Source: Escherichia coli (GTDB lineage: Bacteria; Pseudomonadota; Gammaproteobacteria; Enterobacterales; Enterobacteriaceae). Taken from it: a DNA stretch of 64,000 nucleotides. The stretch is taken from assembly GCF_024223415.1 (NCBI RefSeq), contig NZ_CP100500.1, one strand, 5' to 3'. Shown piece by piece: positions 55,544-64,000 of the stretch. The first letter of the stretch is position 1; each line of letters opens with the position of its first letter. The notes below the pieces were generated by a model. That model saw nothing but the letters and a program-made list of their open reading frames with translations. It was not told the origin of the DNA and ran no database searches. Both the position numbers and the translations under genes were made by a program.

Positions 55544-57796
55544 TTACAAATAGAGATAGTTCGGCGGTTCTCCTGTTTTCCCTAAAAGAAGAGCGCTACG
55601 CCCAGGAATATTGATATTTAGAGTTCCGCCTCTAAGCGTAAATACTTTACCAGGGGGGATAATTTTTCGGGTATTATTAATAATAATGTTAACGCTATTA
55701 CTCCCCATGTTTTTATATTTTCCAGGTTGCAATTTGTTAGGCCAGGTACCTTCAACTTCTTCGTTTCCTTTATTTATTATAACTAGTCCATCATGAGGAG
55801 AGTGATTAATGTTCACAGAATCCCCACGACTAAAGGCCAGAACGTTTTTAGTTGCAAATACACCCTCAAATGCGCTCCATATTCCTGCTTTATCTATATA
55901 TAATGCGTGGAATTCATTGTAGAGCTGCTGATAGGTAGAGCAACCTTTATTAAGCCACGCCTCACCGCCGACACGCGTCGACCCATCATCATTTTTAATT
56001 TCAGTCGTTGATTTTAATACTTGGCCATCCCAGTAAACTAAAGGCCTGCTGAACGGGAGAGCGGCCATATATGCCATTGCTAATTGTTCATCTTGTTGAT
56101 GGTTAAATAGAAAGTCATTGAAAAGATTGCCATTGTTAGGAAAATCGTGGTTAATGTTAATCAATATCCGTCTTTTTGATGGGATGCTTGAGATTGTTGA
56201 ACCCGGTTTTGATGCAAGGGTTTGGAGATCGCCACCAAATGAAAAAGCTTTTATCGTCTTCATGAGCAATGAAAAATCAATGGCGCTTAAATCATCTCTT
56301 TCATAAAGCAGCGATGACATTTGTTGTTCATCCAACTGACTAGTTACCAGATATTCCATGTAATTCATAACGGCTTTTTCATGATATTTTGGGTTAAATA
56401 AGTTAGTATTGTGTAATCGCTCATTATAATTTTTAAGCGGTGGGGTTATTGATCTTTCTATTTGTTCATGTTTTGAGTGTTTTGCCGCATCATAACGTAA
56501 ACCTCGTACGCCATATTTTCGCATTTCACGAACGTATTGATTTTGCAGCATAATAACCTGGTCACTTTTGGGGGTTGTTTTAGGCATTCCATTTAAACGC
56601 TTTTCTTTTAATGCATGGAGGTTTTCCCATTCATCCTTAGAGATGTTATCTTTACTTGCTTCGAAGTCTTTTGCAGTGAGATGTATATCTTCTGGATGGA
56701 TTTGTTTACGTTCTTTTGTTACTGGATCGATAATAAATGGAATCAAAACCTGACCTTGCCAATAGCCAGGGATACCACCTTCTATATCTTTACTGATCTT
56801 CGCTCGTATATCAGCAGAGGGATAATCCAGGTCATTTTTACCACTACCCCCGATTCCCATAAAGTTAAAGGTATAATCAGGAATGATATCGATACCAAAT
56901 TTTTTAGCATCTTTAACCAATGCGATAAAATCCTGCAAATCTCCCATTGGATTGTGGATGGTACAAAGATCTTCGGGTTGATAAGCGTGAAACCAGTAAC
57001 CTTTTTCTTCTTCGGGAGTTTCTGGTCCGTCGGCACGGAAAGTTGTCACTGGAGGGATTTGTATATACCCATAATGGCAACGTGCAAATTCAGACATATT
57101 TTCTCTGATCTGCTGGTAGGTGGCATTAAAAGCATGAAGAATCACTTCGCCAGGTTTTTTGGGGGTGATGATTTCACATTGTGATTTCTGAACAGCAGTA
57201 AGAGATTTACGCTCAAGTGTTTGCCGTAGATGTTCTGGATTGATTAATATTTTAAATGTTTCTTGCTGTCCGGAAGGTGACGTCACGTTAATATTATATA
57301 CATCGGCTGCCAGCTCATAGTCAGGAATGTTAATAGCATATGCAACATATTTATCTTTTGGGGAGGGTTTGTCAGATATAATGTGGGTGAAATGTTCAGC
57401 AGGACCATACTGGTGAACCCCCTTATTATATTCTCTTTCATTCATTGTATCTCTTTGATAAATCCATGTTTTTCCTTCTCCTATCCTGTCTGGCGCTGTA
57501 ATACTACGCTGTGCAGCTTTATTCAGTTCACGGTAAGTTGTATCTGGAAAAAGGGAAATTTTATAATCGTTTTTTAACAGATCATTAATGATTTTTTCTG
57601 CGTGAAAAGTTGATATAATTTCTCTGTCTTTTAAATCCTGAGGATAAACTCCACAAGCATTAATAATATTTGTTACACAGTTTAGATATTCTAATGTATT
57701 TAATTTGGAATTTAGATCCCCGTCAGTAATGTTCCATGATAACAATGTGGGGTTGTCGATAGGTAAATTTCTTGGTCCTGGTTTTATAGAAAACAT
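55544..57796 (-). CDS. ygaQ: YgaQ-like 750-aa protein: N-terminal domain of unknown function fused to a divergent GH13 (alpha-amylase family) catalytic domain
   Basis: Intact ORF; GH13-like regions GYIQIPPV, GYWFHAYQPEDL...FGIDIIPDYTFNF, GVRGLRYDAAKH (56477-56512), MEYLV, ININHD; AT-rich codon usage; no signal peptide. Confidence 0.75.
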   Translation of the reverse strand: MFSIKPGPRNLPIDNPTLLSWNITDGDLNSKLNTLEYLNCVTNIINACGVYPQDLKDREIISTFHAEKIINDLLKNDYKISLFPDTTYRELNKAAQRSITAPDRIGEGKTWIYQRDTMNEREYNKGVHQYGPAEHFTHIISDKPSPKDKYVAYAINIPDYELAADVYNINVTSPSGQQETFKILINPEHLRQTLERKSLTAVQKSQCEIITPKKPGEVILHAFNATYQQIRENMSEFARCHYGYIQIPPVTTFRADGPETPEEEKGYWFHAYQPEDLCTIHNPMGDLQDFIALVKDAKKFGIDIIPDYTFNFMGIGGSGKNDLDYPSADIRAKISKDIEGGIPGYWQGQVLIPFIIDPVTKERKQIHPEDIHLTAKDFEASKDNISKDEWENLHALKEKRLNGMPKTTPKSDQVIMLQNQYVREMRKYGVRGLRYDAAKHSKHEQIERSITPPLKNYNERLHNTNLFNPKYHEKAVMNYMEYLVTSQLDEQQMSSLLYERDDLSAIDFSLLMKTIKAFSFGGDLQTLASKPGSTISSIPSKRRILININHDFPNNGNLFNDFLFNHQQDEQLAMAYMAALPFSRPLVYWDGQVLKSTTEIKNDDGSTRVGGEAWLNKGCSTYQQLYNEFHALYIDKAGIWSAFEGVFATKNVLAFSRGDSVNINHSPHDGLVIINKGNEEVEGTWPNKLQPGKYKNMGSNSVNIIINNTRKIIPPGKVFTLRGGTLNINIPGRSALLLGKTGEPPNYLYL

Positions 57797-64000: not shown

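Follow-up and report, generated by a model that had tools for sequence, protein, structure and literature searches.

The terminal part of the analysed Escherichia coli DNA (a stretch of 64,000 nucleotides, hereafter the window) very probably represents the leftmost 8.6 kb of an immobile accessory segment of 10.66 kb, known from K-12 as the ygaQ-ileY-ypjC-pinH-ypjA locus. The islet is flanked by the core genes glaH (csiD) and ssrA (tmRNA), and its tRNA gene, ileY, is cargo and also an empty attachment site. The annotation follows a 100% match to E. coli GPEC1446, which supplies the RefSeq gene names; the gene order in K-12 TG1 is the same. The features are as follows.

55408-64000, no strand: accessory islet, window portion, delimited by comparison with the islet-free strain AGR5151
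55506-55533, minus strand: terminator-like hairpin just 3' of ygaQ (11-bp stem, seven GC pairs)
55544-57796, minus strand: ygaQ, intact, encoding a 750-aa divergent GH13 (alpha-amylase)-like protein (open reading frame, RefSeq, profile searches)
58291-58355, plus strand: ileY upstream region, a probable promoter, conserved with Escherichia albertii by alignment
58356-58431, plus strand: ileY, tRNA-Ile2 with a CAU anticodon, an AUA decoder (ARAGORN; Rfam, 71.6 bits; RefSeq tRNA-Ile)
58385-58431, plus strand: unoccupied attachment core, formed by the last 47 nt of ileY, which integrase islands duplicate elsewhere
58624-58645, minus strand: 'orphan' terminator hairpin with a T-run
59182-60555, plus strand: ypjC (ypjCB), intact, encoding a 457-aa protein with DUF5507 and DUF5508 (open reading frame, profile matches)
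60811-60890, plus strand: IS3-family transposase fragment, a 21-letter peptide (weak, short match)
60892-61059, plus strand: pinH, 56 internal residues of a serine recombinase of the Pin/Hin type (RefSeq, nucleotide identity to pinE)
61079-61437, plus strand: ypjA leader, holding a 39-aa open reading frame (61283-61402) and matching the leaders of other autotransporter genes at 88-89%
61467-64000, plus strand: ypjA/ehaD, an AIDA-I/Ag43-type autotransporter adhesin (RefSeq, NCBIfam)

Two alternative alleles between glaH and ssrA

The full islet runs from 55408 to the equivalent of position 66062 (10,655 bp, GC 0.425), approximately 2 kb of it past the window end. Its right edge is the ypjA stop, which is directly followed by the 152-bp 3' flank of ssrA. 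In AGR5151, glaH is separated from ssrA by 683 bp without any tRNA in between. Nucleotides 1-198 of this interval correspond to window positions 55210-55407 and nucleotides 532-683 to the 152 bp immediately 3' of the ypjA stop; the intervening nucleotides 199-531 (333 bp) have no counterpart in the islet strain. These comparisons show two alternative alleles at one position, either the islet or the 333-bp sequence; the islet is anchored in the core by the glaH promoter region on one side and the 152-bp ssrA flank on the other. A preliminary description of this DNA had the accessory region begin at 55544, at the end of ygaQ; comparison with the islet-free strain moves the boundary to 55408. The AT-rich yet conserved glaH promoter region itself begins at 55210.

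The same description correctly called the region more AT-rich than the upstream core. In 1-kb bins, GC content is 0.55-0.59 over 49.5-54.5 kb, 0.42 at 55.0-56.0 kb, and 0.33-0.46 from the drop (at approx. 55.2 kb) up to 63.5 kb; the first 55 kb contain a single further bin below 0.42, upstream of stpA. Moreover, AUA codons are approximately 6-fold more frequent in the islet than in the core (16.8 vs. 2.9 per 1,000), and GC3 is 0.30, compared with 0.36-0.69 (mostly 0.5-0.7) in the core. AT-richness had been extended to the window end, which holds for positions 55408-61466 (GC 0.372, compared with 0.525 for positions 1-55407) but not for ypjA, whose full-length GC of 0.496 is near average.

The distribution of the locus was determined by megablast coverage thresholds in 5,426 complete genomes, and the resulting frequencies should be read as minimum values where copies are divergent or interrupted. 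Nearly all of 54000-64000 is carried by 2,608 genomes (48%) and the 333-bp allele by 1,104 (20%), whereas the neighbouring core is found in 5,376 and 5,308 (98-99%). Some part of ygaQ occurs in 4,106 genomes (76%) and at least 80% of the gene in 3,367; ileY with its flanks is present in 2,909 and ypjC in 3,025. Pseudogene states vary by strain, and deletions occur at IS3, IS2, and IS5 junctions. Content thus differs between strains as proposed, and the variability of the 54000-64000 stretch far exceeds that of the rest of the window; it is not the only variable part, although this had been thought likely. The view of the remaining window as uniform core fails in detail only: the asc genes are missing from some genomes, and a pdxR block lies between nrdH and ygaM in others.

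Genes and remnants carried by the islet

The two large proteins recognized earlier are the products of ygaQ and ypjC. The ygaQ gene has a GC content of 0.376 and 24 AUA codons per 1,000; it is a pseudogene in K-12 and O157 and intact here, and it has been used in the literature as an example of an H-NS-silenced, horizontally acquired gene. Its dN/dS is 0.15 (0.03 for glaH), a value which, like the others given below, is based on six strains, some of them carrying pseudogenes; ygaQ remains under purifying selection. The product is a putative GH13-like enzyme. In particular, Pfam matches were obtained to Alpha-amylase (E=3.4e-4) and Alpha-amylase_C (E=1.9e-6), residues 215-320 match PDB amylases at E~1e-7, and a region II-like motif, GLRYDAAKH, is present; the region I histidine is not evident, and the N-terminal approximately 215 amino acids matched nothing. 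Searches with YgaQ gave hits in E. coli and E. albertii only; a genome-contig scan, which detects no more than close relatives, gave E. albertii alone.

The ypjC gene (GC 0.352) is likewise a pseudogene in K-12 and intact here, in a rare allele that only 42 genomes match at 95% identity or above. Its relatives are confined to Escherichia among 1.84 billion representatives. The dN/dS ratio is 0.61 overall, approximately 0.9-1.2 in the N-terminal half, and 0.44 in the C-terminal DUF5508 part, and the product is a fast-evolving protein. An AlphaFold2 model from a 13-sequence alignment is unusable (mean pLDDT 36.7), and a PDB profile search gave no match; residues 296-374 align with a PA14-repeat protein (E 2.8e-4, hhalign probability 26%), which is a lead and not a finding. 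The gene may be functional and rapidly diversifying, with a PA14-like sugar-binding region, rather than decaying.

Between ileY and ypjC, the orphan terminator of the earlier description was recovered as a minus-strand hairpin (58645 to 58624), with no open reading frame of at least 50 aa upstream of it on that strand. A promoter-like site at 58728 to 58701 (minus strand) could give rise to a putative transcript of approximately 75-80 nt ending at this hairpin; an Rfam search of the tRNA-flanking intergenic DNA at E values up to 1 detected no sRNA family. A phage origin was also considered for 58432-59181 and rejected, as the segment has no blastn match among phage genomes.

Downstream of ypjC, mobility functions are reduced to debris, as had been described. 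The IS3-like fragment (approximately 80 nt, orfB-like) matches an annotated partial transposase over 60 nt at 91.8% and covers IS3 profile positions 148-181 at a weak NCBIfam E value of 0.023; a stop codon precedes it. With no more than this left of an orfA/orfB transposase, it is a scar and not an element. It is fused to the Pin-type fragment pinH, which RefSeq lists as a 'recombinase family protein, missing N- and C-terminus' and which has 85.7% nucleotide identity to pinE. With 56 internal residues left and no full resolvase domain and HTH, pinH is a dead fragment. These two fragments are the only mobility content of the islet, in which no integrase gene or remnant was found.

The autotransporter adhesin at the window end is YpjA/EhaD, a published biofilm adhesin annotated as a full 1,528-aa gene in GPEC1446; it would act in biofilm formation and adhesion. 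The window holds its first 844 codons, i.e., the N-terminal passenger, and the beta-barrel lies beyond. Passenger repeats match Ag43 and AIDA-I (E 1e-94 and 7e-70) but stay under the full-length cut-offs, since the window ends within the gene. The dN/dS of ypjA is 0.25.

Low GC and GC3, AUA-richness, genes confined to Escherichia, and the published H-NS silencing of ygaQ together uphold the earlier impression of horizontally acquired DNA, although no donor was found. It is highly improbable that the DNA is instead native, AT-rich through relaxed selection, and deleted in approximately 20% of strains. The patchy pseudogenes and the high dN/dS of ypjC would fit such a history, as would the occurrence of ygaQ-ileY at the corresponding locus of E. 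albertii. However, simple deletion cannot create the 333 bp of the islet-free allele, ygaQ combines purifying selection with the islet's low GC3, and searches with YgaQ and YpjC found no relatives outside Escherichia. Moreover, in the syntenic E. albertii locus, YgaQ is only 60% identical and GlaH 97%, so that the divergence of YgaQ (40%) is far out of line with that of GlaH (3%).

The tRNA gene as cargo and as landing site

The tRNA reported earlier has a CAU anticodon; annotation of tRNA-Ile(CAU) as tRNA-Met is an error noted in the literature. The ileY tRNA has been described as a rare-codon tRNA bound by Hha and encoded near CP4-57, and strains W and B have lost it through IS-mediated deletions. 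The allele found here has a U6.G67 wobble pair, G67 replacing A67 as the one difference from K-12 ileY, and differs from the second genomic copy, ileX, at one to two positions (97.5-98.7% identity). From its identity with the characterised ileY, C34 is presumably modified to lysidine by TilS and the tRNA charged with isoleucine. It would supply a second AUA-decoding tRNA, and codon counts suggest that it may serve its AUA-rich neighbours.

The preliminary description regarded the islet as anchored at this tRNA gene, i.e., as an island that integrated site-specifically in tRNA-Ile(CAU) and later lost its integrase and attachment sites. In favour of this model, the debris of IS3 and Pin type is on the 3' side of the tRNA, ileY has been proven to serve as an attachment site elsewhere, and E. 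albertii DNA is wholly different from approximately 25 nt past the tRNA gene. However, ileY has AT-rich accessory DNA on either side, ygaQ on its 5' side being equally AT-rich and accessory, and the islet-free allele has no tRNA, which is gone together with the islet. Direct repeats of the tRNA 3' end, suggested as marks of old attachment sites, were not found: a scan of 34 kb for 17-32 nt with up to three mismatches was negative, and a blastn-short search of the whole glaH-ssrA interval for ileY and ssrA 3'-end repeats returned chance 9-11-mers only. The Pin fragment is, moreover, of the invertase type and not an island integrase. In strain STECUZB006, a complete ileY is followed by a 33-kb integrase-bearing island, a repeat whose first nucleotide corresponds to 58385, and the native ypjC flank. 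The flank after this 47-nt repeat is the same as here; therefore, ypjC-ypjA is a pre-existing flank and not an element integrated at ileY. On balance, integration at the tRNA is a distinctly improbable origin for the islet.

As cargo, ileY may nevertheless receive islands of its own. The tRNA site between ypjC and ygaQ has been published as the site of ter islands, and the 3' end of ileY would here be an empty landing site for islands with P4-type integrases. Within the species, the variable sites of ileY all lie from tRNA position 42 onwards, within the 47 nt duplicated by islands, and this polymorphism may be a footprint of repeated island integration and excision that left hybrid tRNA 3' halves.

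Origin of the islet and comparison with known systems

The best explanation is an ancient horizontal acquisition of the islet DNA, which would have come in two or more layers. One would be the ygaQ-ileY module, of which E. albertii has a very divergent version at this location, and the other the ypjC, IS3-pin scar, and ypjA part 3' of the tRNA. The islet would now be inherited vertically, swapped by homologous recombination via its core flanks, and eroded by point mutations (patchy pseudogenes) and by IS-mediated deletions fusing it to ssrA-integrated islands. A YgaQ identity of 60% between the two species is equally compatible with old common ancestry, independent acquisition, and allele replacement, and the 333-bp allele could be ancestral or itself a relic. 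An E. albertii open reading frame beside its tRNA was considered as an OTU-protease on account of a DGNCLYHA motif and rejected (Pfam E=0.045, not significant). The ygaQ-ileY pair may also be a portable 'tRNA plus glycosidase' module that passed between Escherichia species by exchange or replacement and not by inheritance; that this, the island-footprint reading of the ileY polymorphism, and a functional ypjC all hold jointly is doubtful.

Another possible source is the other end of the gap: the islet might be a relic of one or more old elements integrated at ssrA, with ileY and ypjA as cargo. The empty site consists of glaH followed by ssrA, a classical hotspot that is occupied by a P4-like satellite prophage in GPEC1446 and by other islands in other genomes, and CP4-57 genes flank the locus in K-12. 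Ag43/Cah autotransporters are common on CP4-type islands, and the ypjA leader is also common to plasmid-borne autotransporter genes. However, the conserved 152-bp flank separates the islet from ssrA and places it outside the ssrA attachment core. Neither an ssrA 3' repeat at the glaH side nor an integrase remnant was found, and this origin appears unlikely, leaving layered acquisition followed by vertical inheritance as the preferred reading.

Earlier literature already covers the locus with its AT-richness, its H-NS silencing, and its variability among strains, as well as the YpjA adhesin and the role of ileY as a site for islands. Added here are exact limits for the islet (55408 and the ypjA stop), the 333-bp allele with its frequency, and the status of the tRNA as cargo and not anchor, a correction that is relevant to calling islands from tRNA proximity alone. 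Modest leads on lineage-specific genes come from ypjC, which evolves fast, and from the ygaQ of E. albertii, which is very divergent. Otherwise, the significance hardly exceeds bookkeeping; the islet is real but ordinary.

Compared with E. coli K-12, the locus has the same genes in the same order and orientation, with approximately 97% nucleotide identity over 54000-64000. It differs in that ygaQ and ypjC are intact rather than pseudogenes, in the rare ypjC allele and the tRNA G67, and in that the closest matching genome has a P4-like satellite at ssrA where K-12 has CP4-57. Like the islands with P4-type integrases (CP4-57 at ssrA, ter islands at ileY/ileX), the islet is low in GC and strain-variable, adjoins tRNA and tmRNA genes, and carries adhesin cargo and IS debris. 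Unlike them, it has no integrase or attachment-site repeats, replaces a 333-bp allele, and contains its tRNA within the variable DNA, not at its edge. Rare-codon tRNAs are also borne by other elements, e.g., ileZ-argN-argO of Stx phages; ileY resembles these as an accessory tRNA-Ile(CAU) within AUA-rich foreign DNA but differs from ileZ-argN-argO in having no phage context. Finally, YpjA, with its NCBIfam Ag43 and AIDA-I repeats, resembles the AIDA-I/Ag43 self-associating autotransporters.

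Gene content, composition and boundaries of the islet

The AT-rich segment between the core genes glaH (csiD) and ssrA (tmRNA) was proposed to be accessory DNA, and every feature named in the preliminary description (a tRNA, two long ORFs, a terminator, IS3 and Pin pieces and an autotransporter) was found:

55544-57796, minus: ygaQ, 750-aa ORF
58356-58431, plus: ileY, one tRNA with CAU anticodon (ARAGORN and Rfam)
58645->58624, minus: strong terminator-like hairpin with no sizeable ORF 5' of it
59182-60555, plus: ypjC (ypjCB), 457-aa ORF
Directly 5' of the pinH fragment: IS3-like transposase remnant, ~80 nt, 21-residue peptide (91.8% nucleotide identity to an annotated partial transposase; NCBIfam IS3 E=0.023)
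60892-61059: pinH, 56-aa serine-recombinase fragment, "recombinase fragment" in RefSeq (85.7% DNA identity to pinE)
From 61467: ypjA/ehaD autotransporter gene

The window is E. coli DNA, and its closest relative over 54000-64000 is strain GPEC1446, which is essentially 100% identical (2 differences there and 9 over the 22 kb compared, 42000-64000). Its RefSeq order is glaH, an alpha-amylase-like protein (K-12 ygaQ), tRNA-Ile, ypjCB, the recombinase fragment (pinH), a small hypothetical gene and ypjA/ehaD, and a P4-like satellite prophage with an integrase lies between ypjA and ssrA. The strains matching at 100% differ by segment: KV7 for 1-25000, SCU-316 for 30001-55000, NCTC10444 for ygaQ and GPEC1446 for 54000-64000. 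In K-12 TG1, gene order is kept at 97% identity, ygaQ and ypjC being pseudogenes there; the genes 3' of the locus in that strain have been assigned to the CP4-57 prophage in a published paper.

A 1-kb sliding profile bore out the described AT-richness. GC content is 0.55-0.59 over 49.5-54.5 kb, falls to 0.42 at 55.0-56.0 kb and then stays at 0.33-0.46 to 63.5 kb; the averages are 0.525 for 1-55407 and 0.372 for 55408-61466. AUA occurs at 16.8 per 1,000 codons in islet genes versus 2.9 in the adjacent core, and GC3 is ~0.30 in ygaQ and ypjC. In the first 55 kb a single 1-kb bin falls below 0.42, namely 45001-46000 (0.388), the only other strongly AT-rich bin; it lies in the alaE-stpA intergenic region 5' of stpA and belongs to the core rather than to accessory DNA.

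The boundaries are defined by the islet-free strain AGR5151, in which the glaH-ssrA gap measures only 683 bp. Its first 198 bp correspond to 55210-55407. In islet-bearing strains, its last 152 bp, with a hairpin terminator, are found directly 3' of the ypjA stop codon, and nothing equivalent to the central 333 bp is present. From these two flanking matches, the islet extends from 55408 to the equivalent of 66062, ~2 kb past the window end (10,655 bp, GC 0.425). It has no flanking repeats and is an alternative allele to the 333-bp sequence rather than a clean insertion. The hairpin in the conserved ssrA flank lies beyond the window, at 24064-24100 of the islet-bearing locus L001 and 15745-15780 of the islet-free locus L018; the changes between the two alleles are paired, so that the stem is preserved (GCCCACATCTGTGGGC versus GCCCGCATCAGCGGGC).

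The tRNA gene as cargo and as landing site

The proposal that the islet is anchored at tRNA-Ile did not hold for the resident DNA. Accessory AT-rich DNA lies on both sides of the gene, since ygaQ, 5' of ileY, matches the 3' side in AT-richness and accessory status; the islet-free allele has no tRNA between glaH and ssrA; and no direct repeat of the 3' end of ileY or of ssrA occurs anywhere between glaH and ssrA. Thus, ileY belongs to the cargo and doubles as an empty landing site; the anchors in the core genome are the promoter region of glaH and the flank of ssrA.

In other strains, sequence arrangement identifies ileY as a genuine attachment site. In STECUZB006, a complete ileY is followed by a 33-kb CP4-type island, a second copy of the tRNA's final 47 nt and then the ypjC flank as in the window; the island carries toxin-antitoxin genes, Cah, a TcdA/TcdB-like glycosyltransferase and a site-specific integrase. 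A similar island in WS1933D abuts the tRNA 3' end exactly, and a published survey reported that ter-operon elements insert at the tRNA between ypjC and ygaQ. In the window, the attachment site (58385-58431) is unoccupied. Within the STECUZB006 island (7561-16489 of locus L019), a 1,715-aa protein with the TcdA/TcdB-type glycosyltransferase domain is followed by a 1,266-aa DUF3491 protein, and two CbtA/YeeU-type modules accompany Cah.

The ileY product is the predicted second AUA decoder; a single base separates the window copy from ileY of K-12 and creates a U6.G67 wobble. Copies of the gene in E. coli (window copy and loci L002, L006, L009 and L014-L017) differ at up to 4 of 76 nt, and in the WS1933D copy the T-stem changes appear to be compensatory. 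Variation is confined to tRNA position 42 and beyond, within the 47 nt duplicated by integrating islands; hybrid tRNA 3' halves that islands left behind may account for this polymorphism.

Frequency, decay and origin

Accessory status was confirmed across 5,426 complete E. coli genomes. Nearly all of 54000-64000 is carried by 2,608 (48%) and the 333-bp allele by 1,104 (20%), versus 5,376 (99%) for the neighbouring 30001-55000 and 5,308 (98%) for 1-25000. Some part of ygaQ is present in 4,106 genomes (76%) and 80% or more of it in 3,367; ypjC is found in 3,025, and ileY with its flanks in at least 2,909 (54%), a lower bound because copies with attached islands score as partial matches. Shortened islet versions stop at IS3, IS2 or IS5 copies joining the islet to ssrA-integrated islands. 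The islet is therefore variable as described, but it is not the only such part: the asc genes are missing in some genomes (coverage of 1-25000 there only 82%), and some strains carry, between nrdH and ygaM (within 42000-44000), a ~1.9-kb block absent here (pdxR and a carboxymuconolactone decarboxylase-family gene).

Among six strains, dN/dS is 0.03 for glaH, 0.15 for ygaQ, 0.25 for ypjA and 0.61 for ypjC. The ypjC ratio is close to 1 across the N-terminal half and the linker and 0.44 for the C-terminal DUF5508 portion as a whole, with sub-regions there ranging from 0.31 to 0.55; thus, the gene is not fully neutral. Pseudogenes are ygaQ and ypjC in K-12 and A7, ygaQ and ypjA in O157 and ypjC in ECCNB12-2; WP8 and the present strain have none. 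The ypjC allele of the window is rare (42 of the 5,426 genomes at 95% identity or more, 2,389 at 90-95% and 648 at 80-90%); most alleles are 6-11% divergent, some with insertions of ~100 bp.

In E. albertii, a homologue of ygaQ lies next to glaH together with a tRNA(CAU) whose upstream region is conserved; the AT-rich DNA beyond the tRNA is unrelated. Identity between the two species is 97% for GlaH and 60% for YgaQ. Within E. coli, the non-synonymous rate of ygaQ is only ~3x that of glaH, too little for 40% divergence, which points to separate lineages of the ygaQ-tRNA module rather than simple vertical descent. No YgaQ relatives beyond these species were found with the E. coli protein against genome contigs or the E. 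albertii homologue against a protein database; outside Escherichia, YpjC had none among 1.84 billion representative proteins, apart from a single weak hit to a PA14-repeat protein. The view of the islet as old, immobilised foreign DNA is probably right: it is low in GC and AUA-rich, ygaQ and ypjC were found only in Escherichia, and its recombinase and IS3 element are fragments. A 362-aa ORF (locus L011, 3171-4259), located in the AT-rich stretch that follows the E. albertii tRNA, contains a 'GDGNCLYHA' motif similar to the catalytic site of OTU cysteine proteases (Pfam OTU E=0.045, not significant); its product could be a eukaryote-directed effector.

Encoded products and published knowledge

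YgaQ resembles GH13 proteins weakly but consistently from residue 215 on, including a region II-like 'GLRYDAAKH', and its N-terminal 215 aa match nothing. YpjC consists of DUF5507 and DUF5508; its predicted structure was too poor for use. Upstream of ypjA, a ~360-bp leader (61079-61437) with an annotated 39-aa ORF (61283-61402) shares 88-89% identity with DNA 5' of further autotransporter genes, carried by many E. coli plasmids and one chromosome (annotated ymgJ / hypothetical / autotransporter), and appears to be a regulatory leader common to such adhesins. Between ileY and ypjC, a possible unannotated small RNA lies on the minus strand (58620-58728): a 10/12 sigma-70-like promoter (58728->58701) precedes the hairpin with its T-run, predicting a transcript of ~75-80 nt (fold z-score -2.25) that fits no Rfam family and lacks a convincing ORF.

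Everything essential on the islet is already annotated or published. In the literature, ygaQ is treated as an H-NS-silenced, horizontally acquired gene; ileY has been reported as a rare-codon tRNA bound by Hha, an H-NS partner; and YpjA/EhaD, which is assigned to the Ag43/AIDA-I group, has been tied to biofilm formation.
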